Below are positions 1 to 23,695 of a DNA stretch of 64,000 nt, one piece after another. The stretch is taken from NCBI GenBank assembly GCA_016839705.1, contig JAEOTR010000032.1, positions 17,731-81,730 of the forward strand, in the 5' to 3' direction. The position numbers were made by a program, and so were the translations under genes. Position 1 is the first letter of the stretch. Every line of letters begins with the position of its first letter. Source of the stretch: Promethearchaeota archaeon. Lineage in GTDB: Archaea; Asgardarchaeota; Lokiarchaeia; Sigyniarchaeales; SOKP01. The notes below the pieces were generated by a model. That model had not been told where the DNA came from, did not search any database, and saw only the letters and a program-made list of their open reading frames with translations.

Positions 1-270
1 AAGATAGGAGACAATTTTACTAGTGCAGGATTTAACTGTGTTGCTCCCGGTGTGGATACTGGAGATAATTCATGGTGGTTACCAATGACAGGGGCAACAA
101 AATACAATATTTTAAAGGGTGATAATTTTTATTTTGGAACTCCTCTCAGGAAGATATTTAAGAGGAAATTAATTGAATTTCTGCAAATCACTGAAGAAGA
201 TCTCAAGAGAGCCGAAGATCTAAATAAAATCCTAAATCAAGAAAATCAGGGAGATGATTCGGTACATTGA
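1..270 (+). CDS. Membrane LbH module M1, C-terminal fragment (5' end outside window); Pls/TIGR02353-like family
   Basis: Frame 1 is open from nt 1 to TGA 268-270. KIGDNFTSAGFNCVAPG...KGDNFYFGTPLRKIFKRKLIEFLQITEEDL aligns with VKIGDNVTAAAGN...KGNNYYWGIPLRKIFRKKTMEFLDLTPKEL in the N-terminal halves of the 9236 and 14480 proteins. Confidence 0.7.
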   Translation, partial: KIGDNFTSAGFNCVAPGVDTGDNSWWLPMTGATKYNILKGDNFYFGTPLRKIFKRKLIEFLQITEEDLKRAEDLNKILNQENQGDDSVH

Positions 271-1172
271 GTGAAAAATCAAAAATTGAAGCTCCACTTG
301 ATAAAAAGAAAGATAGTACAGTTGATTATACTCTTGATTTTGTAACGAGTAGTGTGATAAGTCGAATTGGCTTAAAAGTCCTCGTTTTTTATGTACCAAT
401 ACTATGGGCTTCTGGATTCATGACATCGGCCGTCTTTTTTGATCTATCATTGTTAATCAATAATTGGATAATTACTATGTTTTTGATACCCGTATGGCTT
501 TTTATATTATATTTCATATTTGTTTTTGGTATAGCTTTATTCGCAAGAGCTTTTCTACTAATAATAAATATGATTCACAAACCTAAAGAAGGAGTTTTCA
601 AAGCTGAAAAGGGGAATAAAGACTATGAATTTTGGAGATTGAGGATAGAGTTAAAAAAATTAGTGTTTTGGTTCATGAACAATGGTCCAATGCCGTGGAT
701 AGTAATGTGGGGATTCAGATGGATGGGTGTTAAAGTAGATTTTTCAAGTCATATGAATGATGCATGGGCAGATGGAGATTTTATTGAGTTTGGGAGAAAC
801 GTTACTATTGGTCAAGGTGCTGTTGTAATGAGCTCAATGGTTGTTGGTAAATATTTAATTATTAAGAAAATTATTTTTGGAGATCATACCGTTATCGGTG
901 GTGTTTCTAATATATCTCCAGGCACAGTTATTGGAAAGGAATCAATTATAGGAGTTTTTACAACTAGTAATCCCAATCAACATATAGAGCCAGGTTGGGT
1001 ATATCTTGGTATTCCTGCGAGAAAGTATAAACCTAATAAATATATAACAGAAAGACGAGATGTGATATATCAAAAACTTGTAGAAGATGAAATTAAGTAT
1101 GAAGTTAAACAAGACGTGAATATCGAAGAAGATAAGAAAAAACTTCTGAACAATAATCAGGAGGATAATTAA
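267..1172 (+). CDS. TM-hairpin + left-handed beta-helix module M2 (Pls/TIGR02353-like)
   Basis: 301 aa. Hydrophobic helices (LKVLVFYVPILWASGFMTSAVFF, IITMFLIPVWLFILYFIFVFGIALF) are followed by the collar IHKPKEGVFKAEKGNKDYEFWRLR, hexapeptide turns FGRNVTIGQGAVVMSSMVVGKYLIIKKIIFGDHTVIGG and the cap GWVYLGIPARKY. Collinear with the C-terminal halves of the 9236/14480 proteins. The TTG start overlaps the upstream TGA, and GGGAG lies at 249-253. Confidence 0.75.
   Translation: MSEKSKIEAPLDKKKDSTVDYTLDFVTSSVISRIGLKVLVFYVPILWASGFMTSAVFFDLSLLINNWIITMFLIPVWLFILYFIFVFGIALFARAFLLIINMIHKPKEGVFKAEKGNKDYEFWRLRIELKKLVFWFMNNGPMPWIVMWGFRWMGVKVDFSSHMNDAWADGDFIEFGRNVTIGQGAVVMSSMVVGKYLIIKKIIFGDHTVIGGVSNISPGTVIGKESIIGVFTTSNPNQHIEPGWVYLGIPARKYKPNKYITERRDVIYQKLVEDEIKYEVKQDVNIEEDKKKLLNNNQEDN
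1159..1164 (+). promoter_or_regulatory. Shine-Dalgarno-like AGGAGG upstream of the 1175 ATG
   Basis: AGGAGG lies 10 nt before ATG 1175, inside the end of the preceding CDS. This suggests translational coupling. Confidence 0.5.
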
Positions 1173-1174
1173 TT

Positions 1175-2029
1175 ATGTCTGTACCCTCAAGCTTAAAGGT
1201 TGGTCCAAATACTACCCTCATTCTGGAAAAAAAGAGATATATAATTTTTTACATTTTTTTAATGTGGATTACTATTTTTACAATCCAATTTGAATTTTGG
1301 TTATATTGGATACTTTATGATTGGAAATTTATACACTTTATAATTTTTCTTCCACTCTTGATTATGATTATGTATCTAACTTCTATTCTTGTTTCATTGG
1401 TTTTTGCCAAAATCTTTTTAGTTATAGTAAACCTGATTCATACACCCCGTGAAGGCGTTTTTCTCAGGCATCGCTCAGACAAAGATTATAGATATTGGTC
1501 CCTAAGGAGTGCTATTAAGAAATGGCCCCTATGGCTCTCCCATAAATTTCCTTTTCCCTTTTTAGACAATATTTGCTTAAAAATGTTCGGGGTAAAAACT
1601 AAATTTTCTAACTCTCTCTTTGAAGGCTGGGTTGATTGTGAATTTATTGAATTTGGAAAAAATGTGGTAGTTGGTCAAAGTTCGGTAATTCAATCCTCAA
1701 TTATTGTTGGGAATTTATTTATTATAAGGAAAACGATTATTGAAGACAATGTCATAATCGGTGCCCACAGTGTGGTTATGCCCGGAACACATTTAAAACG
1801 TAATTCTATCTTAGCAACTAGTTCTCTCACAACTGTTGGTCAAGAACTAGAAGAGGGATGGATATATCTTGGCGCTCCAGCGAAAAAATACAAGGAAAAT
1901 GTTTACTTTGAAGAAGGATTAGAAGGAATAATAAGTCAGCTAAATGTGGTAAAATCTAAAGAAGAAGGGCACTCCGAAGATTTTTATACAAGGAGAAAAG
2001 ATAAAAAAGTTGAATTTGAACAATCTTGA
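1175..2029 (+). CDS. TM-hairpin + left-handed beta-helix module M3 (Pls/TIGR02353-like)
   Basis: 284 aa. Has TM helices, the collar IHTPREGVFLRHRSDKDYRYWSLRSAIKKWPLWLSHKFPFPF, LbH turns FGKNVVVGQSSVIQSSIIVGNLFIIRKTIIEDNVIIGAHSVVMPGTHL and the cap GWIYLGAPAKKY. Closest paralog is the 16351-17259 product. Confidence 0.8.
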   Translation: MSVPSSLKVGPNTTLILEKKRYIIFYIFLMWITIFTIQFEFWLYWILYDWKFIHFIIFLPLLIMIMYLTSILVSLVFAKIFLVIVNLIHTPREGVFLRHRSDKDYRYWSLRSAIKKWPLWLSHKFPFPFLDNICLKMFGVKTKFSNSLFEGWVDCEFIEFGKNVVVGQSSVIQSSIIVGNLFIIRKTIIEDNVIIGAHSVVMPGTHLKRNSILATSSLTTVGQELEEGWIYLGAPAKKYKENVYFEEGLEGIISQLNVVKSKEEGHSEDFYTRRKDKKVEFEQS

Positions 2030-2087
2030 AACAGACTTTTTTCGAATTACTTAGAATTTTAGAATAATCTCAAAATAAACGATTGAA

Positions 2088-2885
2088 ATGAAAAAAGTAG
2101 GTTATGTCCAAACAGCTCCTATTTTCGGAGATAAGGAAAAAAACTTTAATCAAATTGAAAACCTATTAGTTAATGTAAAAGCAGATTTACTTGTTTTACC
2201 AGAATTATTTGCCACAGGTTATACATTCATATCAAAGGAGGAAGCAATATCTTTCGCAGAAACATCAAATGAAAAAACGTCTCAATTCCTTAAAAAAATC
2301 TCTAAAATGACCGGTGCTGTAATAGTAGGAGGATATATCGAACAAGCCGAAAATGAGATTTATAATTCTGCCATGATTGTCTCAAATGATCGAGTTGTTG
2401 ATTCATATCGCAAAATACATCTTTATTATAAGGAAAAATTGTGGTTTTCTTCAGGAGATAAACCATTTAAAGTGTATGAGGTAAATGATATAAAAATAGG
2501 TGTTATGATATGTTTTGATTGGATTTTTCCTGAAACAGTACGAACTCTTGCCTTACTAGGAGCAGATATTATAGCCCATCCCGCCAACTTGGTGCTTCCC
2601 TATTGTCAAAATGCTATGATCACGAGATCTTTAGAAAATCGAGTTTTTTCGATAACTTCAAATAGAATTGGGGAAGAAAATAGGGGAGAGGATCATTTTC
2701 AATTTACGGGTCAAAGCCAAATAATTTCTATTCATGGAGAGAATTTATCTTTAGCTCCTAAGGATGAAATTTTTATAGAATTAGTTGATATAGACATTAA
2801 GAAGGCAAGAGATAAAAAACTGAATGAGTATAATAATTTGTTTAAAGATCGACGCCAAGATTTCTATTATCAAAATGATAATTGA
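2088..2885 (+). CDS. Carbon-nitrogen hydrolase (nitrilase superfamily amidase)
   Basis: 265 aa. E-K-C triad context: LLVLPELF (Glu), YRKIHLY (Lys), VMICFDWIFPE (Cys). Typical length and order. Confidence 0.85.
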   Translation: MKKVGYVQTAPIFGDKEKNFNQIENLLVNVKADLLVLPELFATGYTFISKEEAISFAETSNEKTSQFLKKISKMTGAVIVGGYIEQAENEIYNSAMIVSNDRVVDSYRKIHLYYKEKLWFSSGDKPFKVYEVNDIKIGVMICFDWIFPETVRTLALLGADIIAHPANLVLPYCQNAMITRSLENRVFSITSNRIGEENRGEDHFQFTGQSQIISIHGENLSLAPKDEIFIELVDIDIKKARDKKLNEYNNLFKDRRQDFYYQNDN

Positions 2886-2902
2886 TAATTAGTTATTCTA
2901 TT

Positions 2903-3805
2903 ATGAAAGTTGGATATCCTTGTATAAATTTAAGCTTAAATTGCAGGAGTAGTAGAAAATTTCGTTTGAAGAATTATTCAGAAAATAGGCTGATTGATAC
3001 TATTCAAAATAATTTGCTGTGTTTGAAAAAAATTTTAGAGTTTAATTACGAAAATAAAATATTATTCTTTCGGATAACTTCTGATTTGATTCCTTTTGGA
3101 TCTCATCCTATTATGACTTTTAACTGGCAAGAGTATTTTAAATCAGAGTTTAGAGAAATTGGGTTATATATCAGAAAGAAAAACATGAGAATAACAATGC
3201 ATCCTGGCCAATACACTGTTCTTAATTCTAAGAATCAAAGAGTTGTCGAAAATAGTATAAAAGAACTTCAATATCATACTAAAATTCTGGAAGCCATTGG
3301 ATTAGACTCTACTGCTAAAATAATTACACATGTTGGAGGTGTTTATGGGGATAAGAAAACCAGTATTCTAAGATTTATTGAGAGATATAAAAAACTTAAT
3401 GAAAATATAAAAAACTATTATGTTATTGAAAACGATGATAAAAGTTATAACGTAAATGATACGCTAGTCATTAATAGATCTACAGAAATACCAATTATCT
3501 TTGACTCTTACCATCATCACTGTTATAATTTAGGAGCTACAACTGAAGAAGCAATCAAAAAGGTATTTATGATATGGAAAGAAAAAGATGGATTACCAAT
3601 AATACATTATAGTTCCGAACATCCTCTTAAGGGTAAATGTAAACATGCAGAAGAACTTGATATGACAGATTTTAGAAATTTTATAAAAAAGACAAATAAA
3701 TATAATTTTGATATCATGTTAGAGATTAAAAATAAAGAGAAAAGCGCTATCTCTGCTATAGAATATTTAATGAAAGATATACGATTTAATCAAAATAGAA
3801 TATGA
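2903..3805 (+). CDS. uvdE: UV damage endonuclease UvdE
   Basis: MKVGYPCINLSL..., FFRITSDLIPFGSHP, MHPGQY, ITHVGG and DSYHH fit the UvdE TIM-barrel family. The ORF is also open from TTG 2882. ATG 2903 is preferred because homologs start at M-x-x-GY. Confidence 0.8.
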   Translation: MKVGYPCINLSLNCRSSRKFRLKNYSENRLIDTIQNNLLCLKKILEFNYENKILFFRITSDLIPFGSHPIMTFNWQEYFKSEFREIGLYIRKKNMRITMHPGQYTVLNSKNQRVVENSIKELQYHTKILEAIGLDSTAKIITHVGGVYGDKKTSILRFIERYKKLNENIKNYYVIENDDKSYNVNDTLVINRSTEIPIIFDSYHHHCYNLGATTEEAIKKVFMIWKEKDGLPIIHYSSEHPLKGKCKHAEELDMTDFRNFIKKTNKYNFDIMLEIKNKEKSAISAIEYLMKDIRFNQNRI

Positions 3806-3834
3806 TTATATAAAATTTTAAATTATTGATATCT

Positions 3835-4305: not shown

Positions 4306-4437
4306 AAAAGAAAATTGCACTTTAAAATTTGATAATTGAGATTATATAGATCCTTTATATTTTAAACAAATAAGAAATAAATAATGATCTAATATAATTT
4401 CATTTAATTCTAATTGATATTTTTAAAATAAAAAAAA

Positions 4438-4836: not shown

Positions 4837-4879
4837 ATTTCAAATCAAACTTTATAATTAAAAAATATCTTTCTTTTTT

Positions 4880-6529
4880 TTATGTTGTTAGACTTTCAAC
4901 AACATATAAAGGCCATTTTTTGAGAATACCTTTTGATATTATTCCTTTTCTAACTTTCTCGAGCATTTCTTTTCGAGTGGCTAAAAAATCAATAGGAGTT
5001 TTATCGATTGGTATAATTTCAATATGGTTATTTAAAATACTTTTTTTGAAAGCTTCATCGTTAATGCACTTAGACAATAATTCCTTGTTTTTTGATAAAT
5101 TTAAACATCCCTTTTTTCCATTTGATGGAATTAACAATTTTAGTTTATCCTTACCGTCAATATTATCTTTAATTAATAGTAGCGAATCAATGTCTACATT
5201 ACAATTCCGATTTATGCAATAAATTAAACCACGAGGATTATAAATATCAAAACTATCGAAGTTAAAGAATTCACCTACATAAACATGGTATTTTGAAGGA
5301 ATTGGGATTTCTGGAATAATATGTATCGGGTACTTTAATTGAAAGTTTGAGCGAAGAATTTTACCTTCAATTTGGGGAAGGGCTTCTGAATCAACCACAT
5401 TTATGATATCTCCTATGTCTATATTACAAAAAACATTGGAATTGTTTAAACGTGAAATCAGCAAATTACCAATTTTTGATTCAGTTCGAGAAATTAATTG
5501 GAATTTTCCGTTACTCTCAATTGCAGGCAGTGTTAAGGGAAATACATATAGATTTCCCGTTCTTGAGAATTCATACCCATTTTTCGTAATACTTGCCGCA
5601 AAAGGTCCTGTCTCCGAGGCAACATATAAATTTATGAATTTTTCTTCTCCTCTTTTCCAATTCATAAATTTTCGAATTAAATCCCAATCCTTTTCTGATA
5701 GAGAACTAATACTAAATACGATAGTGGCTTGAGAGAATTTTTTCGAAAGTAATTCTTGAATTTCATACGTTGCCGTTTTTATTCCCTTATTCTTTATTAT
5801 TAAGAGAAGTTTTTCTAAAATGGGATCTTCATTATCTTTAATAGATTTCATAGTTTCTTGTATTCCACGTTGTAATTTTGCAATATCCGCCCACCCTAAT
5901 ACAGTAATAGCTGGAGCAGAAATCGTAGAGATTTTTTCTAGTGATAAGAGCTTAGCAATGACATCCAACCTTTTAGAATCTTTATATTCAAAAAATCTAT
6001 ATGACTCTGGTTTAATAATTGATAACATTACTCTTTGGGAAAATTCTGAAGAATAAAGAGAAATGTATTTTTTATCTTCATAAGTTTTTAAACCATCAAT
6101 ATTCAATCTCGAAGGAACAAAAATAACTACACTCGAGTGAGTGCTCAACCCACCCGACTCAAAAATGGCTTGCATTCCAGGGGCCCAATAATGTTTAACG
6201 ACCCAATCTGACATAGGAAACCATTTCAGTGCTGAAATTTTTGAGTTAGTTGTTCCAGAGCTATGGCATAATATTATTGGTTTCGATCCCTGAAAATTTG
6301 CTAGAAAATTATTAATATTTATTGCGAGGGCTTTTGAATCCGTCTTTTCTTTAGTAATTCTTTCAAGAATGTCGCTAATAGATGATAAACCTGAATTTTT
6401 AAGGGTAAGTTCTTCGTATTCTTCTTTCGATGAAATATCTAGCCATTTCTTCCAATTTATAGATGGTATATCAAAAAATTGTTTATTAAATATTTTTTGA
6501 ATTTCTATATCAAAATCATATGCTCTCAA
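4880..6529 (-). CDS. GH3-like adenylate-forming acyl-acid amido synthetase (ANL-related)
   Basis: 549 aa. HSSGTTNSKISALKWFP (GH3 motif 1-like SSGTT..K..P), LYVASETGPF (YxSSE-like motif 2), IDIGDIINV (GD motif 3). Confidence 0.55.
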   Translation of the reverse strand: MRAYDFDIEIQKIFNKQFFDIPSINWKKWLDISSKEEYEELTLKNSGLSSISDILERITKEKTDSKALAININNFLANFQGSKPIILCHSSGTTNSKISALKWFPMSDWVVKHYWAPGMQAIFESGGLSTHSSVVIFVPSRLNIDGLKTYEDKKYISLYSSEFSQRVMLSIIKPESYRFFEYKDSKRLDVIAKLLSLEKISTISAPAITVLGWADIAKLQRGIQETMKSIKDNEDPILEKLLLIIKNKGIKTATYEIQELLSKKFSQATIVFSISSLSEKDWDLIRKFMNWKRGEEKFINLYVASETGPFAASITKNGYEFSRTGNLYVFPLTLPAIESNGKFQLISRTESKIGNLLISRLNNSNVFCNIDIGDIINVVDSEALPQIEGKILRSNFQLKYPIHIIPEIPIPSKYHVYVGEFFNFDSFDIYNPRGLIYCINRNCNVDIDSLLLIKDNIDGKDKLKLLIPSNGKKGCLNLSKNKELLSKCINDEAFKKSILNNHIEIIPIDKTPIDFLATRKEMLEKVRKGIISKGILKKWPLYVVESLTT

Positions 6530-6629: not shown

Positions 6630-7175
6630 TTATGGCGTGATTAAGGAACTCTTTGTCTTACTATATAATTCTCTTATTAGAGATTTGAATGCGTCTTCAA
6701 CATTCTGACCCGTTTTCGCTGATGTATGGTAAAATCCTGTAAAATTATTTTTTTGAACAAATTTTATGATCTTTTCATCAGTTAATCTATTATCATCAAC
6801 CAAATCAACCTTATTTCCGAAAAGTGCAACAGGAATGTCTCCACAAAATTTCTTAATTTCTTTGAGCCATTGCGCAGCATGTTTAAAACTATCTTTTCCA
6901 AATTTGTTTTCCTCTATGGAGAACACAATTATAGATGCCACGCTTGACCTATAAAATGCAGGTCGTAGAAAATGAAATTCATCTTGACCAGCTATATCCC
7001 AAAAAACTAATTCACAAAGATCACCCTCAATTTCTTCCTCATATTTAGAAAATTGTGCTCCTATAGTCTTAATGTATTCCTTCTGAAAACTTCCTTGAGT
7101 GAATTTTTTTATTAAGGATGTTTTTCCTACGAAACCATCCCCAATTACAGTAATTTTAAATTTGAATTTATTCAT
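6630..7175 (-). CDS. Rab/Ras-family small GTPase
   Basis: 181 aa with all G boxes: GDGFVGKTS (G1), T in YIKTIG (G2), WDIAGQDEF (G3), GNKVDL (G4), TSAK (G5). No C-terminal Cys prenylation motif. Confidence 0.9.
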   Translation of the reverse strand: MNKFKFKITVIGDGFVGKTSLIKKFTQGSFQKEYIKTIGAQFSKYEEEIEGDLCELVFWDIAGQDEFHFLRPAFYRSSVASIIVFSIEENKFGKDSFKHAAQWLKEIKKFCGDIPVALFGNKVDLVDDNRLTDEKIIKFVQKNNFTGFYHTSAKTGQNVEDAFKSLIRELYSKTKSSLITP

Positions 7176-7297: not shown

Positions 7298-8086
7298 ATG
7301 GTTGCGATAAAGGAAAGTAGAATGGAAGTATTATTTGGATTTTTTGGGGCTTTATTCATTTTAGTTATGTTAATAATCTCAATAATTCTTTCTCCAGGAT
7401 ATTCCCCTTTAACAAGTACTATAAGTACACTTGGAGAAAGAGAAGCAAAAACGTTGTTTAGCATTGGATTTGTTGTAGCGGGTTCATTATTAATCCCTTT
7501 TTATATCTATCTGAAAAATGAATTAGTTTATCTGAAAAACCGTCTTAGAAAAATAGCGACAGGTGTAGCTATTTTTTCCAACATGTGTATTGCTTTAGTG
7601 GGAATAATTCCTGATAAGGATTACCCCGGTGCTTTTCTTGCGTTTCATGCATTTGTAGCGGGTGTGAGTTTTATAGGAACCTCTATTTATATTGTGTTAT
7701 ATAGCCTTTTAATGTACTTAGGTCCAAAGTCTACCATGTATAAGGGTCCACAATTTAAAAAATATCTTTCTTACTATGGCTTTTTTGTAGGAATAGTATT
7801 TGTAGTGTGGTTAACCAACCCGATAAATCCACCTTTAGAATGGGCAGTAGCAATACTCATACTTATTTGGATTTTAATTACGGCATTACAGTGTCTTTCA
7901 TTTAAATTTTCTAAAATCCCGGGGGTATATTATAAACGATCTCAATATCCTGAAAAAATAAAACTGTTTAAAGACGCGATCCATGTTTTAGAGAATCTAG
8001 AAATGGGAGATGAGCCAATTTTGGACACATTAAAAGACAATATTGAATATATCGAAAGTCAAATGGAAAAAAACCAAAACAAATGA
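7298..8086 (+). CDS. DUF998-like polytopic membrane protein
   Basis: 262 aa with about 6 TM helices. GYSPLTSTISTLGE resembles the DUF998 signature. Confidence 0.45.
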   Translation: MVAIKESRMEVLFGFFGALFILVMLIISIILSPGYSPLTSTISTLGEREAKTLFSIGFVVAGSLLIPFYIYLKNELVYLKNRLRKIATGVAIFSNMCIALVGIIPDKDYPGAFLAFHAFVAGVSFIGTSIYIVLYSLLMYLGPKSTMYKGPQFKKYLSYYGFFVGIVFVVWLTNPINPPLEWAVAILILIWILITALQCLSFKFSKIPGVYYKRSQYPEKIKLFKDAIHVLENLEMGDEPILDTLKDNIEYIESQMEKNQNK

Positions 8087-9090
8087 AAGCGGCAGTATTT
8101 GATGGAGAAGAATTGGAAATAAAAACTGTGGCAGATCCTAGAATATCAGATACAAAAGTATTAATTAACGTTAAAAGCGTTGGATTATGTGGAACCGATA
8201 TAGCTATAATTAAAAAATCTTTACCTAGTCCAACACCTATAATTTTAGGGCATGAATTTGCAGGTGATGTAGTAAAGATAGGAGATAATGTTGATCCAAA
8301 ATGGCTTAATAAAAGAGTGACGTCTGAAATAAATACTAATATTGATTTTAGCTGTTTCTACTGCAAAAAGGGGAAATATACTCAATGCGTATCAAGAAAA
8401 GCATTAGGGATAGATATTGATGGGGCCTTAGCTGAATATATAGCATTGGAATCATATTTACTTCATGAAATCCCAGATTCAATCTCATATGATGATGCCA
8501 CATTCATCGAACCATTAGCAGCAGCATATCAAATATTCGAAACAATGCCATTGGATGCAAATGATAAAGTGATGGCTATATTTGGGCTTGGGAAATTAGG
8601 ATTGCTAATTACACAAATAGCATTGCTTAAAGGTCTAAAATTAATTGTTGTTGATAGTTCTCATAAAAAACTAAAATTAGCAAAAAAACTTGGTGCGCAA
8701 AAAGTACTTAACAGATTTGATGGTCCTTACGTTCCTGATTGGATAAAAAGTCTTACAAGGGGGCTAGGTGCTGATATAACTATAGACGCAACAGGCAACC
8801 CTCTAGCAATAAAAGATGTAATTGCTTCATGTAGAACCCTTGGAAAAGTACATTTAAAAAGTACGCATGGTCTTGACACTTCTATTAATTTAACTGATGC
8901 CATTGTGCGCGAGTTAACGCTCTATACTAGTAGATGTGGACCATTTGATAAAGCTATACAAGGATTAAAAGATGGAACGATTGATGTTGAAAAATTGATT
9001 TCTAAAAAATATCCATTAAAGGACATTGATAAAGCTATAGATTTTAATAATATCTCCCAAGACCATATTAAAACAATTATTCATATATAA
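8083..9090 (+). CDS. Zinc-dependent medium-chain dehydrogenase/reductase (threonine/sorbitol dehydrogenase-like)
   Basis: GLCGTDIAI and GHEFAGDVVKIG (catalytic Zn), CFYCKKGKYTQC (structural Zn), GLGKLGLL Rossmann motif. ATGA overlap with the upstream stop. Confidence 0.85.
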   Translation: MKAAVFDGEELEIKTVADPRISDTKVLINVKSVGLCGTDIAIIKKSLPSPTPIILGHEFAGDVVKIGDNVDPKWLNKRVTSEINTNIDFSCFYCKKGKYTQCVSRKALGIDIDGALAEYIALESYLLHEIPDSISYDDATFIEPLAAAYQIFETMPLDANDKVMAIFGLGKLGLLITQIALLKGLKLIVVDSSHKKLKLAKKLGAQKVLNRFDGPYVPDWIKSLTRGLGADITIDATGNPLAIKDVIASCRTLGKVHLKSTHGLDTSINLTDAIVRELTLYTSRCGPFDKAIQGLKDGTIDVEKLISKKYPLKDIDKAIDFNNISQDHIKTIIHI

Positions 9091-9235: not shown

Positions 9236-11065
9236 ATGGTTAATGATGAAATACCAGAGCCTAAATCAGAAACCAAGAATAATTTTATACGGGAAGACAT
9301 ACAGTTTCAGTATTTCTGGTATTTATTCATCTTTTTTACTATTTACCTTACATCATATATTGTTCCAGCCTTTTTATTTATGAGTTATATCTTTCTCTTT
9401 TTCTTACCTAATTTTTTAGACACATCTAGTTTCATAGCACTATTTACTGAAATAAAGCCAATTCTAGCATTAGTATCAATGCCCTTAGTTATTATAGGCT
9501 GTTATCTTATTCGATTATTTTTTGTTGGGCTAATGACACGATTTTTTTGGAGATTGACTGAAAAAAAGTGTCCCAGTAAAGATGGAATAATACCAAGGAA
9601 TTTTCCCAGTAGAACTCTTAATTATTATCATATTCGAAGTTTCTTGATAAAATATGGAAAGAATACTTTTACTAAGGGAGCTTTCCCTTGGTTAAGCAAT
9701 TGGTTATATAATTTTGTTGGTTCAAGTGTGATAGGAAAGGGATCAACATTTGAGGAAAGCATAGGCAACGAAAAGTTTGGAATTGTCGGAAAAAATTGTT
9801 ATTTTGGTGCTGGTGCTGCTTTGGCGACTCATCTGGTTGACGGAACTTTTGGAAATATAAATTATTTCCATGTGAAAATTGGAGATAATGTTACCGCTGC
9901 TGCGGGAAACCTAGTTGCCGCAGGATCAGAGGCATATGATAATTCTTATCTACTACCGATAGCTTCTGCAGGAAAACATAGCTTATTAAAAGGAAATAAT
10001 TACTATTGGGGAATTCCATTAAGGAAAATATTTAGAAAAAAAACTATGGAATTTTTAGATTTAACACCAAAGGAATTAGAGATAAATGCAAATATCGTGG
10101 GATATACTGATAAAAAAGTATTGGAGAAATTAAAAAGTGAGAAATCTTTAGAGCCACCTGAGGAAATCATCCGCACCGAAACAGAAGAAAGTCTAGATAA
10201 TGAGAAAGAAATTGATATAAATGATTTAAGTGAAGAAGATTTAGCCTTAGATTTCACAACAAGTAGTGCAATTTCACGAGTGAACATAAAGTTTTTAGTA
10301 GTTTACATTCCAATTTTTTGGTTGTCTGGTATGTTGGATACGATAATTTTTTATACATTTATTTCCTTGGTAAGCAATAAATTTGTAATGATATTCTTCC
10401 TTCCAACGATTATTATTATTATGTGGTTCATTTTTATATTAGGGTGTTTCTTTTTCAGCAAATTATTCCTAGTCTTAATTAACTTAATACATAAACCAAA
10501 AGAGGGAATATTTAGAGCGGAAATTGGAGATACTGATTTTGAATTTTGGAGCTTGCGTACCGAAATAAAAAAAATAGTATTATGGCTTTTACGTAATTGG
10601 CCCCTTCCTTGGGCGGATATATTAGCATTTAAATTTTTCGGAGTAAAAATGACCTTATCAAGTTCATTATATGATTCTTGGTGCGATAGTGAATTTATAA
10701 CATTCGGGAGAAGAGTCTTAGTTGGACAGGGTGTGACGATTATGTCTTCAATGGTGATAGGTAAATACTTAATAATTAAGAATGTTATATGCGGTGATTA
10801 TTCACTTATAGGAGGTCATTCCACAATCGCACCAGGTACAATTATAGGGGAGGATACTTTTGTCAGTGCTCTTTCTACATCTGTGTATTCTCAGATCCTT
10901 GAACCGGGATGGATCTATATTGGAGTCCCTTGCATTAAACTAAAACCAAACAAATATGCTGAATCTCAAAGAGAAATATTAGTTAAAAGAGACGTAGATG
11001 AAGAGAGGAAATTTGAGATTGAACATGAAGTTAACATTGATGAAGATAAGAAAGATCTCTTATAA
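9236..11065 (+). CDS. Fused double module M1-M2: two TM-hairpin + LbH units (Pls/TIGR02353-like), no M3 partner
   Basis: 609 aa. M1 carries TM helices, PSKDGIIPRNFPSRTLNYYHIRSF, LbH turns and NYYWGIPLRKI. An acidic linker follows. M2 carries TM helices, IHKPKEGIFRAEIGDTDFEFWSLR, FGRRVLVGQGVTIMSSMVIGKYLIIKNVICGDYSLIGGHSTIAPGTIIG and GWIYIGVPCIKL. Confidence 0.8.
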   Translation: MVNDEIPEPKSETKNNFIREDIQFQYFWYLFIFFTIYLTSYIVPAFLFMSYIFLFFLPNFLDTSSFIALFTEIKPILALVSMPLVIIGCYLIRLFFVGLMTRFFWRLTEKKCPSKDGIIPRNFPSRTLNYYHIRSFLIKYGKNTFTKGAFPWLSNWLYNFVGSSVIGKGSTFEESIGNEKFGIVGKNCYFGAGAALATHLVDGTFGNINYFHVKIGDNVTAAAGNLVAAGSEAYDNSYLLPIASAGKHSLLKGNNYYWGIPLRKIFRKKTMEFLDLTPKELEINANIVGYTDKKVLEKLKSEKSLEPPEEIIRTETEESLDNEKEIDINDLSEEDLALDFTTSSAISRVNIKFLVVYIPIFWLSGMLDTIIFYTFISLVSNKFVMIFFLPTIIIIMWFIFILGCFFFSKLFLVLINLIHKPKEGIFRAEIGDTDFEFWSLRTEIKKIVLWLLRNWPLPWADILAFKFFGVKMTLSSSLYDSWCDSEFITFGRRVLVGQGVTIMSSMVIGKYLIIKNVICGDYSLIGGHSTIAPGTIIGEDTFVSALSTSVYSQILEPGWIYIGVPCIKLKPNKYAESQREILVKRDVDEERKFEIEHEVNIDEDKKDLL

Positions 11066-11158
11066 ACAATTTATCGGAAAAAACGCAAAGAGCGTTGCCG
11101 CTATTACTGTTCTACGATAATATTATCATAACATTTAAGATGGAATGTAATTAAACCA

Positions 11159-11830
11159 TCATTTTAATAATGTTCTCAAATATCTTAACCATTTATTGCG
11201 AGGCGCTTTAGCTTTATACCAATCATAATTGGAATCATCACCAAAAGGTTGATACTCCGTGTAATAAGCTTGGTCTTCATTAATATTGTCAATCTGTTGC
11301 TCAAGTAAAGCTATAAGGTTTTTTATGTCCTCTTGATGTTGACGAGATAACATGAATTTATCTCTTTCAGTAATATTTTCACTAGGATATTTACCGTTAA
11401 AGGAAAGAGTCAAAGAATGACTATAACGTTTAATGGTTTGTTTCAAATTCGGATGGTTTAATACGATTTCTCTCGCTCTATCTTTATATTTTGAAGTACC
11501 ATCAAACATGATGTCGAGACATGTATGGTAGTCTCTCAAATCAATCATGACCGTCTCTATTAATTCATTCCATGTAATTCCATAATTATACCGACAGGCA
11601 CGTTGATATATCCCTCTAAGAGCCTCTAATGAGTCGGAATTATTTATTTTTACAAGAGCATCAATGATTTGCGTATCCCTTTCCAAGTTACATAATTGGA
11701 AAAGCACTCTAACAGATTCTAAATCCCCTTTTTTTATTAATTTATTTATTTCTTTTTTCCTTGTTTTTGGGCTTGCTTGCCTTAGCTTATTAAACTTCTC
11801 TAATTTCTTGCCAGTAAAAAATCTATGCAT
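11159..11830 (-). CDS. Hypothetical protein (helical, HEAT-like N-terminus)
   Basis: 223-aa ORF with normal composition, convergent with 9236-11065. No motif recognised. Confidence 0.5.
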   Translation of the reverse strand: MHRFFTGKKLEKFNKLRQASPKTRKKEINKLIKKGDLESVRVLFQLCNLERDTQIIDALVKINNSDSLEALRGIYQRACRYNYGITWNELIETVMIDLRDYHTCLDIMFDGTSKYKDRAREIVLNHPNLKQTIKRYSHSLTLSFNGKYPSENITERDKFMLSRQHQEDIKNLIALLEQQIDNINEDQAYYTEYQPFGDDSNYDWYKAKAPRNKWLRYLRTLLK

Positions 11831-11933
11831 TGATACTCTCTATTTCTTTGATTTTAATTTTTATATTCAATTTTAATAAACTTTAGATTAATTTAAGTAT
11901 TAATGAAATATTTGGTGAAATTCAAAAATTATT

Positions 11934-12110
11934 CTAATCTAATTGGTTTCCACAATTTTCACAATATTTATTAATTTTTAAGTTTTCAGAGCCACAATAA
12001 TGACAAATTATTTTTTCTGTTTCTTGTCTAGGTCTTGGCTGATATATAGGTTCTGGTTGATACACAGGTTGTGCTTGGTAAGATGGGAGTGCTGGGTTTT
12101 TTTTAAATAT
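11934..12110 (-). CDS. Small Gln/Pro-rich protein with C-terminal zinc ribbon (start uncertain)
   Basis: The minus-strand frame is open from 12110 to stop 11936-11934: ..PALPSYQAQPVYQPEPIYQPRPRQETEKIICHYCGSENLKINKYCENCGNQLD. The only canonical start is GTG at 12065. Not in the ORF track (under 60 aa). Confidence 0.35.
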   Translation of the reverse strand: MFKKNPALPSYQAQPVYQPEPIYQPRPRQETEKIICHYCGSENLKINKYCENCGNQLD

Positions 12111-12476
12111 TCATATTTAAATAAAAAATTTCAGGAATGGTAAATTCAGCGTCTGATTTCAATTTCGAATAACATTTCATATAAAATTTGATTCTTTATT
12201 TTAATTTAGAAAAAACGTAAAATATCTCATAGTGCTAAAATATTTCAAGGAAAATATTGTTCCTATAGTAAAATTTTTTTTTAAGACAACTTTTAAGAGA
12301 ATATGTATCGAAAAACTTTGTATCGAAATATTGGAAGGTGAAACAAAATATCTGTTAAAAATCTTCCATTAACGAGAGAAAATATACCGTTTGAACGACT
12401 TTTTAACCCACGTGCGATAGTAATAATTGGTGTTTCAAAATTAAACCCATCTGGAGCAACTCAATATGTTCATGCA

Positions 12477-13892
12477 TTGAAGGGTGCTCAATTTCCGAAT
12501 CCAATTTATCTTGTAAACCCGAAATATATTGATGAGGATTTAATGGGATATAAGTTTTATGATTCTATATCTTCAATACCAGATGAAACACCAGTTGATC
12601 TTGCTATAATAGCGGTACCTGCACAATTAACTCCTTCGATTATTGAGCAATTAGGTAAAAAAGGAGTTTCATTTGCCCACATATTTAGTAGTGGATTCTC
12701 TGAATTAGATACTGAATTTGATAAAAAAGGTAAAAAACTAGAAGAAGAACTAATCAGAAATGCTTCAAGATATGGAATACGTATCCTCGGTCCCAATTGT
12801 ATGGGCATAGTTGCTCCAAAATCAAATCTTACTTTCTTAATGTCATTTAGGTCAATGCAAGAAGCAAATAAAGAATTCGATTCAAAAAATATTGAAGGTT
12901 TAGACGATCTTGGAAATTTAATAAATAACGGGCAAGTAGCTTTTATATCACAAAGTGGGGGGATTGCATTCACCCATGGAATGCTTTCACATTCATTAGG
13001 TTATAGTTTTTCAAAAATCGTCTCCCTTGGTAATCAAATTGATTTGGATTTACTTGATTTTCTTCGGTATTTTAAAGATGATCCAGAGACAAAAATAATA
13101 TCAATGTATATTGAAAATATTAAAAGAGAGGGGAATGAGTTTGTTCGATTATTAAAAGAGACAACTGCTAAGAAGCCTGTAATTATATGGAAAGGTGGTA
13201 TTTTCCAAACGGGTCATCAAGCAGTTATGAGTCATACAGGGGGATTAGCGGGTAATTATAAAATGTGGGAATCAATGGCATGTCAAACTGGAGTAATTCT
13301 AGTAGATAATTTTGTAGAATTAACAGATATGATACAAACATCTCTTACTTATCCATTTCCACAAACCTTAGGTACAGCAGTACTATCTATGAGCGGGGGT
13401 ACAGCGGTGGAAAGTACTGATGAAGTTGAACGGAATGGTTTACTTATGCCTCTTTTAACGCAAGAAGTGACACAAAAAATTAACCAATTTATCCCAGAAA
13501 TTAACTCTAATTTAAAAAATCCGTTAGAATTCGGAGGAAAGAACAGTTTAGAACATACTGTTAAAATTATCAAGATGTTGGGAGAAGAACCTCAATTTTC
13601 CTCCATAATAATGGCAAGTTCTCCAGAATATCTTGTTTTTCGAAGAGGAAATAGCTTGGATGATTATATTAAAGCAATTTCCAATGCTTTACCTCCTCAC
13701 TCGGGCAAAATACTATTGTGTGTTGCCAGCAGTATGAATATGTTTGAGCAAGGGATAAAAATGAACCTCGAATTTAGTTCCAAATCTCTATCCAATGGAT
13801 TTGTAGTATATCGTTCTACAGCAGCAGCAGCAAAATCTTGTTATCGCTGGTGGAAATACGGAAAGTATTTAGAAAAAAGAAAGATTGTTTAA
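12477..13892 (+). CDS. ADP-forming acyl-CoA synthetase, alpha-subunit type (CoA-binding + CoA-ligase domains)
   Basis: MSHTGGLAGN is the phospho-His loop, and ILGPNCMG, FISQSGG and KPVIIWKGG are present. The conserved N-terminus FERLFNPRAIVIIGVS is encoded in frame upstream (12384-12476) with no ATG/GTG/TTG, so the true start is probably near ATA 12384. Confidence 0.8.
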   Translation: MKGAQFPNPIYLVNPKYIDEDLMGYKFYDSISSIPDETPVDLAIIAVPAQLTPSIIEQLGKKGVSFAHIFSSGFSELDTEFDKKGKKLEEELIRNASRYGIRILGPNCMGIVAPKSNLTFLMSFRSMQEANKEFDSKNIEGLDDLGNLINNGQVAFISQSGGIAFTHGMLSHSLGYSFSKIVSLGNQIDLDLLDFLRYFKDDPETKIISMYIENIKREGNEFVRLLKETTAKKPVIIWKGGIFQTGHQAVMSHTGGLAGNYKMWESMACQTGVILVDNFVELTDMIQTSLTYPFPQTLGTAVLSMSGGTAVESTDEVERNGLLMPLLTQEVTQKINQFIPEINSNLKNPLEFGGKNSLEHTVKIIKMLGEEPQFSSIIMASSPEYLVFRRGNSLDDYIKAISNALPPHSGKILLCVASSMNMFEQGIKMNLEFSSKSLSNGFVVYRSTAAAAKSCYRWWKYGKYLEKRKIV

Positions 13893-13954
13893 TAAAAAAG
13901 ACCACCTTTATGTATTCAATCTTACTTTTCTTTTCAGTTTTAATAATACTAATT

Positions 13955-14344
13955 TTATTGGAGTCCTAATTCTTGTTTTAAAAATCTCGATAAATCTTCG
14001 CATGTTTCTTTTAATTCAGTTTCATCCTGATAAAATAGATGAGGTCTAGGACAATCATTATCATAAATACAATTATTTTCTTGAAAATTATAAATTAATG
14101 GGTAAAATCTACATCCTTGAGGGCGATATTCATATATTTTACATTCCTTTGAAAGAGAGTCTAAGAAAATGCAGTGATCCTCATTATTTTTTAATTGAAA
14201 AAACCCATCTCTATTTTTAAATACGAAATCATTTTTTTGTAGATTTTTAGTGGAATTTTTCATAATTCTATTAATATCACTCTCAGAAAGAATCATTTCA
14301 GTTCTTAAACAACATTCTCCGCAATTTTCACACTTATTTTTCAT
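13955..14344 (-). CDS. YkgJ/UPF0153 family cysteine-cluster (Zn/Fe-chelating) protein
   Basis: CENCGECCL....CIFLD....CKIYEYRPQGCRFYP is the CxxCxxCC family pattern. Confidence 0.75.
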   Translation of the reverse strand: MKNKCENCGECCLRTEMILSESDINRIMKNSTKNLQKNDFVFKNRDGFFQLKNNEDHCIFLDSLSKECKIYEYRPQGCRFYPLIYNFQENNCIYDNDCPRPHLFYQDETELKETCEDLSRFLKQELGLQ

Positions 14345-14479
14345 ATATTTTTATTAAAAGTATTAATCATAAATTTAAAGGGATAATAAATATCTTATAA
14401 AGTATATTAAGAATCAATTGCTTTTTAATTGAGTAAATGTTAATGAGTTGCATAGTATAACAATTTTCAATGAAAACTT

Positions 14480-16354
14480 ATGGTAACAATGAGCGAACAA
14501 GTTGACGAAAGCGAACCATCGAATTTGGATACTCCTGAAAATCAAGTTTTAAAAGAAGAGGTTAAACTTCAATTTTATTTGTATATTCTTATCTTTAGTT
14601 TTATTTTTTATAGTTCATGGGTTATCCCTGGTGTCTTCTTTTTTTGGTACGTTCTTCAAGTTTTTCTTCCTAATTTCTTAGAAATTTCTAATTTTATATT
14701 ACTTTTTACAGAGCCTAACTCTTTAATTGCATTCCTCTTGATGCCCATCGTTCTCATCGGATGTTACCTACTTCATCTAATCATTTTGGGGATATCAACT
14801 AAAATTTGTTGGAAAATTTCTGAAAAGATTTCCCCATCTAAGCCCGGAGTAATACCCAGGAACATTCGAAGTAAAGCCGTCAATTATTATCATATTAGAA
14901 GCTTTATGATCAAATATGGCAAAAATTCATTTACAAAAGGTGTTTTTCCGTGGTTAAGTAATTGGTTCTTTAATACTGTAGGCTCAAACAAAATTGGTAA
15001 AGGCACAACTCTAGAAGAATCTGTAGGAATGGATAAATTTATTGAAATTAAAAAAAATTGTTATATTGGAGTTAATAGTACTCTAGCCAGTCATCTTATT
15101 CAAGGAATTTTTGGAAATATCTCCTATTTTAAAATTAAAGTAGGGGATAATGTTACAGCAGCCGCTATGAGTCAAATTGGACCAGGCTCTGAAATAAATA
15201 ATGATTCGTTCCTACTCCCCCTAGCTTCTGCAACTAAACATAGTGTCTTAAAAGGAAAAAACTATTATTGGGGAATTCCCTTAAGAAAAATATTTAGAAA
15301 GAAAACTATAGAATATTTAGACCTTACTCCAACAGATTTGCAAAAAAATGAGAATATTTTGGGGTATACAGATAAAAAACTTCTAAAACAACTAAAGGCA
15401 AAAGAGATTCAAGAAACGTTGACTAACGAAGCTGTTAAAATAGAACAGGAAATTTCTAACTTGGATGAGAAAAGAATTGATGTTATTAAATTAGAAAAAC
15501 AAGATTTAGCAATTGATTTCACTACTAGCTCTGCTATCAGTAGAGTTAATTTAAAATTTTTAGCAGTCTATTTACCAATTTTCTGGTTAGCAGGCTTATT
15601 AATCTCAATATTATGGTATTGGTATTTGCTTGATCAAAAGTGGATACCTATTTTATCATTTCTACCTCTTATTTTGTTTGGCTCAATATATCTTTTCATT
15701 TTAGCATGCATACTTTTCAGCAAATTACTCTTAATTCTTATAAATTTAATACATAAACCAAAAGAAGGTATTTTTAAAGCAGAGATTGGGGATACCGACT
15801 TTGAATTTTGGACTTTAAGAACTGAATTGAAAAAAATCGCATTGTGGTTTATGCGAAATTCACCACTTCCATGGACTGACGTAGTATCATTAAGATTATT
15901 TGGTGTGGACATGGATGCTTCAAGTCATCTAAATGATGCATGGTGTGATGCCGAGTTTATTAAGTTTGGGAGAAAAAACTTAATCGGACAAGGAGCTACG
16001 ATTATGTCGTCCATGGTGGTAGGCCGATATTTGATTATAAAAAAAGTTGTATGTGATGATTATATCATGATTGGTGGTCATACTACGATTGCACCGGGGA
16101 CGATCATGGGTAAAGAATCCGTGATCGGTGCTATTTCTTCTACTACAGTAAATCAGGTGTTAGAACCAAATTGGGTATATTTTGGAATTCCTGCTATTAA
16201 ATTAAAAGAAAATAAGTATGCAGAAGAGAGGAGAGATGTAATTTTAAAGCGTGATGTGGATGAGGCAAAAAAATTTGAGATAGAACATGAAGTAAATATA
16301 GATGATGATAAAAAAGATTTAATTAAAAAAGAAAAAGAGGTAAAAGAAGTATGA
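14480..16354 (+). CDS. Fused double module M1-M2: two TM-hairpin + LbH units (Pls/TIGR02353-like)
   Basis: 624 aa, collinear with the 9236 protein throughout. Examples: PSKPGVIPRNIRSKAVNYYHIRSF, NYYWGIPLRKIFRKKTIEYLDLTP, IHKPKEGIFKAEIGDTDFEFWTLR, GQGATIMSSMVVGRYLIIKKVVCDDYIMIGGHTTIAPGTIMG. Confidence 0.85.
   Translation: MVTMSEQVDESEPSNLDTPENQVLKEEVKLQFYLYILIFSFIFYSSWVIPGVFFFWYVLQVFLPNFLEISNFILLFTEPNSLIAFLLMPIVLIGCYLLHLIILGISTKICWKISEKISPSKPGVIPRNIRSKAVNYYHIRSFMIKYGKNSFTKGVFPWLSNWFFNTVGSNKIGKGTTLEESVGMDKFIEIKKNCYIGVNSTLASHLIQGIFGNISYFKIKVGDNVTAAAMSQIGPGSEINNDSFLLPLASATKHSVLKGKNYYWGIPLRKIFRKKTIEYLDLTPTDLQKNENILGYTDKKLLKQLKAKEIQETLTNEAVKIEQEISNLDEKRIDVIKLEKQDLAIDFTTSSAISRVNLKFLAVYLPIFWLAGLLISILWYWYLLDQKWIPILSFLPLILFGSIYLFILACILFSKLLLILINLIHKPKEGIFKAEIGDTDFEFWTLRTELKKIALWFMRNSPLPWTDVVSLRLFGVDMDASSHLNDAWCDAEFIKFGRKNLIGQGATIMSSMVVGRYLIIKKVVCDDYIMIGGHTTIAPGTIMGKESVIGAISSTTVNQVLEPNWVYFGIPAIKLKENKYAEERRDVILKRDVDEAKKFEIEHEVNIDDDKKDLIKKEKEVKEV
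16337..16341 (+). promoter_or_regulatory. Shine-Dalgarno-like GAGGT before ATG 16351
   Basis: GAGGT lies 9 nt upstream of an ATG that overlaps the upstream stop (ATGA). Confidence 0.45.
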
Positions 16355-17259
16355 GTGTTCCTAATACAATGCGTGTTGGTCCTTTTACACCAACAATATT
16401 GGCAAAAAAAAGATATTTAATATTATACATTTTCCTTATTTGGGCGAGTATAATTCCACTATTATTAGAGTTTTGGATTTATTGGCGTTTTTTATGGTAT
16501 TTACCAAGTCCAGTTCATTTTTATACTTATCTACCTCTGTTAATATTTTTGATGTATGTTACGATTGTATTTTCAGCAATATTTTTTACCAAGATACTTT
16601 TGGTAATAATCAACGCTATTCATAAACCAAAAGAGGGGACATTTTTAAGGATCCCTGCAGATAAAGATTTTCGATATTGGAGTCTGCGGAATACAATTAA
16701 ACGGTGGCCAGTTTGGCTTGCACATAGATTTCCTTTTCCAGGGATTTTAGATAATATATGTTTTAAAGCTTTCGGGGTTAAAACTAAAATCTCAAATTCT
16801 TTATTCGAAGGATGGGTTGACACAGAATTTATTGAATTTGGAAAAGATGTTGTGGTGGGACAAGGAGCAATCGTTCAATCAGCAGTAATTATTGGGAATC
16901 TTCTGATTATTAGAAAGACAGTTATTGAAGATAATATAAGAATAGGTTCCCATGCTATAGTTATGCCAGGCACCCATATTGGGCATAACTGTATCTTAGC
17001 TGCCAATAGTGTAACTACGGTTGGGCAAGTGCTAGAGCATGATTGGATTTATGTTGGCATTCCTGCTAAAAAATTCAAAGTTAATTATTTCTTTGAAGAT
17101 GGTCTTGAAGATAAATTAGGCGATGTGGAAGATGTAGAGGCATTAAGAAAGCGATATGAAGAAATATATACAAAACGCTATGATGAGCTCACCCATAAAG
17201 AACGAAAAGAATTAAAGAAAGAGAAGAAAGAAGAAGAAAAAAAGAGATGGGAACCTTAG
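16351..17259 (+). CDS. TM-hairpin + LbH module M3 (Pls/TIGR02353-like)
   Basis: 302 aa. IHKPKEGTFLRIPADKDFRYWSLRNTIKRWPVWLAHRFPFPG, FGKDVVVGQGAIVQSAVIIGNLLIIRKTVIEDNIRIGSHAIVMPGTHIG, DWIYVGIPAKKF, and a Lys/Glu-rich tail. ATGA-coupled to 14480-16354. Confidence 0.85.
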   Translation: MSVPNTMRVGPFTPTILAKKRYLILYIFLIWASIIPLLLEFWIYWRFLWYLPSPVHFYTYLPLLIFLMYVTIVFSAIFFTKILLVIINAIHKPKEGTFLRIPADKDFRYWSLRNTIKRWPVWLAHRFPFPGILDNICFKAFGVKTKISNSLFEGWVDTEFIEFGKDVVVGQGAIVQSAVIIGNLLIIRKTVIEDNIRIGSHAIVMPGTHIGHNCILAANSVTTVGQVLEHDWIYVGIPAKKFKVNYFFEDGLEDKLGDVEDVEALRKRYEEIYTKRYDELTHKERKELKKEKKEEEKKRWEP

Positions 17260-23683: not shown

Positions 23684-23695
23684 ATAATAGTTTCA

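Follow-up and report, generated by a model that had tools for sequence, protein, structure and literature searches.

Stand-alone membrane hairpin/beta-helix modules at three loci of an Asgard archaeon: candidate distant relatives of the Pls/PosA polymerisation domain

Module genes in the window

The DNA studied here is a 64,000-nucleotide stretch of contig JAEOTR010000032.1 (positions 17,731 to 81,730, forward strand; assembly GCA_016839705.1) from a Promethearchaeota archaeon, referred to below as the window. It carries five coding sequences (CDS) that represent three paralogous module types, M1, M2 and M3, and are distributed over three loci. Every module combines a hydrophobic hairpin with a conserved collar and a left-handed beta-helix (LbH). 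All of the open reading frames (ORFs) named in an earlier inspection of the letters (the sequence-only reading) were present at the same coordinates, as follows (aa, amino acids; nt, nucleotides; TM, transmembrane):

1..270, + strand: locus 1 M1, C-terminal 89 aa only (cut by the window start); its translation is 46-52% identical to M1 of loci 2 and 3
267..1172, + strand: locus 1 M2, 301 aa, with TM hairpin, IHKPKEG collar (nt 576-593), LbH and cap GWVYLGIPARK (nt 993-1025)
1175..2029, + strand: locus 1 M3, 284 aa, 57% identical to locus 3 M3; Hexapep 33.8 bits
9236..11065, + strand: locus 2 M1-M2 fusion, 609 aa, no M3 downstream; invariant His199 of M1 at nt 9830-9832
14480..16354, + strand: locus 3 M1-M2 fusion, 624 aa
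16351..17259, + strand: locus 3 M3, 302 aa, joined to M1-M2 by an ATGA overlap; conserved more strongly than the other modules

No additional module was found 3′ of position 17259, that is, in the window's other 47 kb. The M2 gene of locus 1 has a TTG start and overlaps the M1 stop codon as TTGA. In the M1 half of the locus 3 fusion, the hydrophobic block (aa 28-118) is followed by the PSKPG collar (nt 14834-14848), His205 (nt 15092-15094) and the cap (nt 15260-15289); the M2 half carries an HKPKEG collar (nt 15752-15769) and its cap (nt 16169-16201). The sequence-only reading had described a fused M1-M2 gene with a downstream M3 gene as the general layout. This is correct for locus 3, but locus 2 has no M3, and M1 and M2 of locus 1 are separate genes.

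BLASTP comparisons between the cut-out modules showed that modules of the same type from different loci share 46-62% identity (E 1e-108 to 1e-145), that M2 and M3 are 33-40% identical (E 1e-52 to 1e-65), and that M1 has 19-25% identity to M2 or M3 across approximately 200-280 aa (E 1e-7 to 1e-14). This similarity is far beyond chance, and the three module types are paralogous, which bears out the proposal that the five CDS are made from one module used in three ways. The collar and cap motifs quoted in support of that proposal were also found, with small variations. The collar of M2 and M3 reads IHKPKEG or IHTPREG, followed by D.(D/E)(F/Y).(F/Y)W.LR, and that of M1 reads PSK(D/P)G(I/V)IPRN...NYYHIRSF; the caps are GW(I/V)Y.G.PA.K in M2/M3 and NYYWGIPLRK in M1. 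The hydrophobic block of each module measures 68-91 aa and has Lys/Arg-rich stretches on both flanks, which according to the positive-inside rule places the LbH domains on the cytoplasmic side. The corresponding block forms two long helices in the AlphaFold2 (AF2) model of a homologue, P0123, discussed below.

Similarity to Pls/PosA and the three-module model

To our knowledge, descriptions of the Pls/PosA polymerisation domain are so far limited to its occurrence as the tail of enzymes resembling nonribosomal peptide synthetases (NRPS), and no experimental structure of it exists. Our literature search found no description of stand-alone relatives of this terminal domain or of the present Asgard family. 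What is known is thus the Pls/PosA-type architecture; what is new is a stand-alone, split Asgard version, which falls below the family cut-off and lacks the fusion to adenylation and thiolation domains. As the sequence-only reading had stated, no adenylation (A), thiolation (T), condensation (C) or thioesterase (TE) domain is fused in the five products, for which Pfam and NCBIfam gave just hexapeptide/LbH matches. Hexapep (PF00132) scored 32.2-38.6 bits for four of the products vs. a gathering score of 27, and 23.2 bits for the product of 267-1172. Among 18,950 NCBIfam families, the Pls/PosA terminal-domain family TIGR02353 came first or second for all five products (E 3.6e-13 to 3.7e-7). It was the top match for 267-1172 (E 3.3e-8) and 16351-17259 (E 4.6e-9), and the E-values for 1175-2029 and 14480-16354 were 3.7e-7 and 3.6e-13. 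For 9236-11065 (E 3.4e-8), aa 358-578 aligned to profile positions 8-223. When diverse family members were compared, TIGR02353 matched 105 of 106 with a best E-value of 1.6e-32, still far under its cut-off, and the next family matched 99 of them (best E 1.9e-20). For high-GC members TIGR02353 was the sole family below 1e-12, with an alignment covering the whole Pls module including the TM hairpin.

As comparators we used eight bacterial Pls/PosA proteins from plasmid records (NRPS-like proteins of 1319-1417 aa), cut into 24 modules. In a tblastn search of plasmids with M3, the match with the longest coverage was a Pls/PosA NRPS (E 0.07), and a Streptomyces pls gene was matched at E 2e-3. A hidden Markov model (HMM) of the 24 bacterial modules matched 362 of the 396 archaeal family proteins, with M3 orthologues aligning to positions 14-230 of the 238-position HMM at E ~1e-22. 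In hhalign comparisons, archaeal and Pls modules were aligned with a probability of 90-98.6% (E 2e-6 to 5e-16). The full-module alignments were collinear, and splitting of the modules showed that the LbH part carries the signal (E 1e-14 to 1e-16). The three Pls modules C1-C3 match one another at E 1e-23 to 1e-34, far closer than they match any archaeal module, and a similar closeness is seen between M2 and M3 (E 1e-55). Since the modules are closest within their own lineage, the three-module state was probably reached independently in the archaeal family and in Pls, or the modules were homogenised within each lineage. One-to-one orthology of M1/M2/M3 with C1/C2/C3 was considered, and the hhalign scores allowed no assignment. 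In two bacterial pls loci (Streptomyces and Kitasatospora; L035 5411-6823 and L042 2733-3180) a gene for an M1-family metallopeptidase lies directly 3′ of pls, a loose parallel to the carbon-nitrogen (C-N) hydrolase gene that follows archaeal locus 1.

Natural gene fusions indicate how the archaeal modules are combined. Multi-module fusions among 50%-identity representatives were of three types. M3-M1 was found nine times and M3-M1-M2 twice, and M1-M2 three times in addition to the entire main family. Each confident fusion can be obtained by rotating the cyclic order M1 > M2 > M3, and departures from this order were seen solely as low-margin classifications in very divergent sequences. The module genes are co-located throughout the related loci, and in distant lineages the three modules are the sole neighbours shared with the window. 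A distant high-GC Asgard genome, for example, has an M3-M1 fusion beside a divergently transcribed single module and no other window neighbour.

P0123 is a natural single-chain homologue with the order M3-M1-M2, and its AF2 model had a mean pLDDT (predicted local distance difference test) of 78.4 and a pTM (predicted template modelling score) of 0.63. MAFFT alignments that mixed M3 with M1-M2 proteins put M2 on the first P0123 module and were left out of the modelling. For this reason another alignment was used (45 sequences). It covers modules 2 and 3 well, and the model of module 1 rests on a thin set of approximately five sequences. DSSP assignment for the first third of the model gave helices at 20-50 and 52-88, a strand at 94-97, helices at 103-122 and 128-137, and an LbH with the strand pair 175-178/181-184. 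The second and third modules repeat this order, with two long helices first, then the strand and the second helix pair, and the LbH with its inserted strand pair last. A published AlphaFold/RoseTTAFold model of the Pls/PosA C-terminal domain has six bent membrane helices in three pairs and three five-turn left-handed beta-helices in approximate threefold packing, with a beta-strand and two alpha-helices between helix pair and beta-helix, and a beta-helix interrupted by two extra strands (PMC10522769). In each third, the order of elements in the P0123 model equals this description of PosA (the model was set against the verbal description), so that the layout of the Pls C-terminal half, named in the sequence-only reading, is matched element for element. 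The three modules of two TM helices and an LbH per unit are present in the archaeal family as M1-M2 plus M3 sets, which in the window are split over two or three genes. The pTM of 0.63 suggests that the three thirds of P0123 adopt a defined mutual arrangement and are not free domains. Searches of the PDB by sequence (M1-M2 and M1 alone) and by Foldseek with the three-module P0123 model returned generic LbH enzymes and no Pls-like entry; hence there is no solved Pls-type structure to compare.

In M1, the LbH turn that leads into the two-strand insert contains an invariant His (His205 in 14480-16354, His199 in 9236-11065 and H457 in P0123), which M2 and M3 do not have. Across the eight Pls/PosA proteins, the residue aligned with it is a conserved His in C3 alone (within QTHLFEDR), not in C1 or C2, and the M1 residue also aligns with an SH pair in PDB entry 7s43. 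The restriction of this His to M1 and to C3 suggests one candidate catalytic interface per pseudo-trimer in both the archaeal family and Pls/PosA.

In summary of likeness, the archaeal family resembles Pls/PosA (the epsilon-poly-L-lysine and delta-poly-L-ornithine synthetases) in its three modules, each predicted to comprise a pair of TM helices, then a strand and two helices, and finally an LbH of five to six turns that holds a two-strand insert; in the cytoplasmic location of the LbH; and in a His that is conserved in just one module. It is unlike Pls/PosA in having no adenylation or thiolation domain, and in being split over two or three polypeptides or permuted as M3-M1-M2. It is also an Asgard-only, multi-copy, highly conserved set, whereas pls is a sporadic bacterial/fungal secondary-metabolite gene.

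The second group of relatives is formed by hexapeptide acyltransferases. LbH acyltransferases use CoA or carrier thioesters, and in the soluble hexapeptide enzymes the CoA thioester is bound between adjacent beta-helices. By Foldseek, the archaeal LbH is nearest to maltose, galactoside and serine acetyltransferases (probability 1.0, E ~1e-4, target TM-score 0.5-0.63), all of which are acetyl-CoA-dependent. With these soluble enzymes (maltose/galactoside, YvoF/NF058585, WcaF and serine acetyltransferases) the archaeal family shares the LbH fold and the sequence repeats and, probably, the use of a CoA thioester. The soluble enzymes are homotrimers, in which a single gene product forms three equivalent sites. 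In contrast, the archaeal family has three diverged modules, each with a TM hairpin of its own and a collar for which solved structures offer no counterpart.

The window proteins could therefore be regarded as ordinary membrane-anchored, acetyl-CoA-dependent O- or N-acetyltransferases of the maltose/galactoside/WcaF/YvoF type, with each paralogue homotrimeric, an envelope glycan or ether lipid as the acetylated molecule, and a convergent or trivial likeness to Pls. The closest solved folds fit this explanation, as do the family scores, since NF058585 (heptaprenylglyceryl phosphate O-acetyltransferase) and WcaF-type families are about equal to TIGR02353 for the window proteins, and the TM and collar region is by itself not significantly similar to Pls. 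We nevertheless consider it unlikely. It does not account for the obligate co-occurrence of three module types and their fusion in a fixed cyclic order, for the natural three-module chain modelled with a pTM of 0.63, or for a candidate catalytic His in one module type alone; for diverse members TIGR02353 is clearly the best family; and two membrane-anchored LbH domains of one chain on threefold axes of their own would be expected to clash with the membrane plane. If the function were plain acetylation, the interest of the family would be mainly structural and evolutionary. A non-catalytic or non-acyltransferase LbH assembly, for instance a gamma-carbonic-anhydrase-like or structural membrane module, appears very improbable. 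Gamma-carbonic anhydrase, CaiE and PaaY are among the weaker matches (E 1e-6 to 1e-13), and gamma-carbonic anhydrase subunits of respiratory complexes occur low in the Foldseek list, but such matches are always weaker than those to Pls and acetyltransferase families. Moreover, the three-His metal site is not conserved, and only single invariant His residues occur per module.

Asgard distribution and a possible mode of action

With the M1-M2 protein of locus 3 as query, more than 436 homologues were obtained at E<=1e-3. Identity is 62-100% among the 120 that were listed, which are approximately 620 aa long, and every source name among them is an Asgard metagenome-assembled genome. For M3 of locus 3, 676 homologues were obtained (72-94% identity among those listed). 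A search of 1.84 billion 50%-identity representatives gave 453 relatives, of which all with a source name are Asgard; none of the best 150 exceeds 797 aa, and no Pls-sized protein was seen among these 150. A scan of species-representative genomes yielded 30 loci, again all Asgard. Judged on the named matches, the family is seen only in Asgard archaea. The homologues are annotated in databases as hypothetical, as "isoleucine patch" acetyltransferase-like or as DapH/DapD/GlmU-related proteins. Purifying conservation is strong across the family and strongest in M3.

Taking these results together, we judge the chance to be about even that the five CDS code for the subunits of LbH acyltransferase complexes that are embedded in the membrane, have pseudo-threefold symmetry and are restricted to Asgard archaea. 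The family is most likely a distant, free-standing and split relative of the polymerising C-terminal domain of Pls/PosA. One complex would consist of one M1, one M2 and one M3, each giving a TM hairpin, a collar of a short strand and two helices, and a cytoplasmic LbH, and the three beta-helices would pack as a hetero-"trimer" on a six-helix membrane bundle. As no adenylation or carrier domain is attached, a CoA thioester is the most economical assumption for the donor. The acyl donor would then be a diffusible thioester, most likely acyl- or aminoacyl-CoA, possibly supplied by neighbouring acyl-CoA synthetases or by X549, an orphan protein encoded in the window and described below. Catalysis would probably occur at a single inter-module site with the M1-only His. 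As acceptor, the helix bundle would handle a membrane-bound or exported molecule that offers an amine or a hydroxyl; the transfer might be single or iterative (polymerising). The M1-M2 protein of locus 2, encoded alone, probably borrows an M3 from another locus. The high conservation and the multi-copy, core-like distribution favour a housekeeping envelope or membrane role over a sporadic, antibiotic-type product.

Several results weigh against this interpretation. The window products reach 28.9-48.7 bits with TIGR02353 vs. its curated cut-off of 423.1, so that the relationship predicted by the sequence-only reading holds in the ranking of families and fails in the absolute score. For these proteins from an AT-rich Loki genome, NF058585 and WcaF-type acetyltransferases score close to TIGR02353. 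When the TM and collar region alone was compared with Pls, hhalign gave E 0.06-0.9, which is not significant. HMMER was marginal for the same region, with a top score of 11.7 bits vs. 8.4 for reversed-sequence decoys and a mean for M3 of 8.1 vs. 1.6. As a calibration, M1 and M2 within the archaeal family reach only E 2e-5 for the same region, and the non-significant comparison with Pls is thus weak evidence against homology. The pseudo-trimer is deduced from the pTM, from the order of the fusions and from the tendency of LbH proteins to form trimers, and the proposals for donor, acceptor and the role of the His are inferences. Finally, the genes for the C-N hydrolase, an alcohol dehydrogenase (ADH), a CxxCxxCC protein and X549 are syntenic with the modules only in Lokiarchaeia-like genomes, where they stand beside the unrelated genes UvdE and PNPOx, and are missing in distant loci.

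If the proposed relationship is true, a free-standing three-subunit version would offer a simpler system for examining how a product is made and handled by a prism of three LbH domains seated on a helix bundle, and would bear on the origin of the Pls/PosA domain. It would, in addition, indicate that Asgard archaea have an uncharacterised and apparently core activity at the membrane or envelope; among prokaryotes they are the closest relatives of eukaryotes, and little is known about the chemistry of their envelopes.

Conserved gene order, X549 and other neighbours

The sequence-only reading had recommended a survey of the M1-M2/M3 pair and its neighbours across Asgard genomes, and tblastn of the window genes against the 30 related loci indeed revealed a conserved order. 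It begins with M1, M2 and M3, the C-N hydrolase, a group of UvdE, PNPOx, DUF1761 and X549, and ADH. It continues with M1-M2 (no M3, sometimes duplicated), the CxxCxxCC gene on the opposite strand, M1-M2 with M3, and an acyl-CoA synthetase. In a compact variant UvdE, PNPOx, DUF1761, X549 and the acyl-CoA synthetase are missing. The neighbours identified in the window are:

2088..2885, + strand: C-N hydrolase (nitrilase/amidase superfamily); PF00795 E 7.6e-43; NF040852 283 bits, under the cut-off of 500
4880..6529, - strand: X549, 549 aa, Asgard-only orphan with a predicted ANL (PaaK/GH3-type) adenylate-forming fold, candidate activating enzyme
6630..7175, - strand: Ras/Rab-like small GTPase, a typical Asgard signature gene; PF00071 E 1.8e-43; inside the conserved neighbourhood in few related loci
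8083..9090, + strand: Zn-dependent ADH family gene; ADH_N / ADH_zinc_N; NCBIfam matches all under cut-off
12477..13892, + strand: NDP-forming acyl-CoA synthetase (ACD) alpha-like gene; CoA-binding and Succ_CoA_lig domains
13955..14344, - strand: CxxCxxCC putative metal-binding protein; PF03692; divergent from locus 3 in all related genomes
17782..19611, - strand: long-chain acyl-CoA synthetase (AMP-forming), convergent with locus 3; NF006134 717 bits vs. a cut-off of 625; AMP-binding

The absence of M3 at locus 2 is kept in related genomes. The locus 1 type, with M1, M2 and M3 as three separate overlapping ORFs, also occurs in other genomes, indicating that the split in the window is genuine. 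The shared order further implies that the three loci are old paralogues and not a recent local triplication. The earlier suggestion that triplication within 17 kb points to diversified substrates is therefore speculation, as the loci are old and syntenic and one of them has no M3. In a complete Asgard chromosome (CP070831.1; L001/L018), the M3 after the M1-M2 gene of locus 3 type is only 138 aa long (11884-12299), and a 73-aa H+-PPase fragment comes next. The same 3.34-Mb contig also encodes a full-length M3 (P0318, JSV62_14470), whose locus tag is distant, which shows that M3 can be unlinked from M1-M2.

For X549, no Pfam or NCBIfam family was found at E<=0.01 and nothing meaningful at E<=10, and a PDB sequence search was empty. 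Its 296 homologues (clusters) are all Asgard hypothetical proteins, in which the motifs H89-x-S91-G92-T93-T94...K102 and Y302-V303-x-S305-E306-x-G308 are invariant. The AF2 model (pLDDT 87.4, pTM 0.87) was matched by Foldseek to the acyl-CoA ligase BT_0428 (E 1.4e-12), to PaaK1/2 and to JAR1 and GH3.6 of the GH3 acyl-acid amido synthetases (E 1e-12 to 1e-9 over all of these). X549 thus resembles the PaaK/GH3 branch of the ANL superfamily in its predicted fold over both domains and in the SGTT...K and SE.G motifs, which lie at the expected places, and differs from these enzymes in having no sequence similarity to Pfam, NCBIfam or PDB entries and in being confined to Asgard archaea. It would represent an Asgard-only family of adenylate-forming fold that sequence searches miss. 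The candidate link between X549 and the LbH complex consists in synteny alone, at 14 of 30 related loci. A 715-aa gene upstream of P0123 was considered as its counterpart and proved unrelated to X549.

The sequence-only reading had supposed a carrier-less system without activating domains. None is fused, and no carrier-like small ORF was present in the one intergenic gap checked, but possible activating enzymes lie nearby, namely X549, the acyl-CoA synthetase and the ACD alpha-like protein. In the reading proposed from the sequence alone, the module proteins would form a carrier-less homopoly(amino acid) or polyamide synthase that, like Pls/PosA, condenses an activated amino acid or similar monomer iteratively, with activation in trans, e.g. 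by X549, and extrusion of the polymer through the helix bundle. Their predicted architecture and their best family match are those of the only LbH enzymes for which polymerisation is known, the adenylate-forming-fold orphan is co-syntenic, and the C-N hydrolase after locus 1 could trim or recycle an amide product, just as pls loci have an adjoining peptidase. Such a function seems rather unlikely to us. We know of no polymer from Asgard archaea; no carrier protein or phosphopantetheinyl transferase was seen; the resemblance to Pls is weak and lies mostly in the LbH; distant lineages show no linkage of X549 or the hydrolase; and highly conserved, multi-copy, core-like genes are unlike the sporadic secondary-metabolite gene pls. 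Of similarly low probability is a more far-reaching version, in which a carrier-independent, multi-subunit Asgard relative of Pls/PosA, fed in trans by X549 or CoA ligases, makes and exports an unseen polyamide or repeatedly acylated envelope polymer and represents the ancestral form of the NRPS-fused bacterial domain.

The remaining neighbours are linked to the modules to differing extents. The C-N hydrolase lies directly 3′ of locus 1 M3 in 16 related loci, wherever both were seen, and is missing from the distant L032 and L033; its position may reflect a functional link to the LbH genes. ADH is directly 5′ of the locus 2 M1-M2 gene in nearly all related genomes, and the long-chain acyl-CoA synthetase occupies the same position in five related loci. 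The ACD alpha-like gene was found at this position just in the window and in one related locus (L002), there between the M1-M2 genes and CxxCxxCC. Its ORF has a TTG start and aligns from profile position ~29, and so its N-terminus may be mis-called. A 223-aa ORF in the same region (11159-13892) has no family match and a faint HEAT-like signal, and matched none of the related loci; together with the ACD alpha-like gene it looks like an insertion in the window. Assignment of a function from the neighbourhood was ruled out by the unrelated genes in the order (UvdE, PNPOx and the Ras-like GTPase) and by the lack of sharing with distant members. As the links are confined to Lokiarchaeia-like genomes and stand beside unrelated genes, they serve as leads and not as pathway evidence.

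No Rfam match was obtained in the window. Downstream of the module loci we observed a NosD-like protein of 438 aa (19897-21213, - strand), which has a hydrophobic segment at its N-terminus and a right-handed beta-helix and recurs near M1-M2/M3 genes in one related locus (L010), and four consecutive ORFs of 227-327 aa at 23000-27690 with no Pfam match at E<=1e-5. Farther along, a leucine-rich-repeat protein with eight LRR_4 stretches (30944-31990, + strand) is followed by two tandem Glu/Leu/Phe/Val dehydrogenase genes of 417 and 416 aa (32131-34665, + strand).

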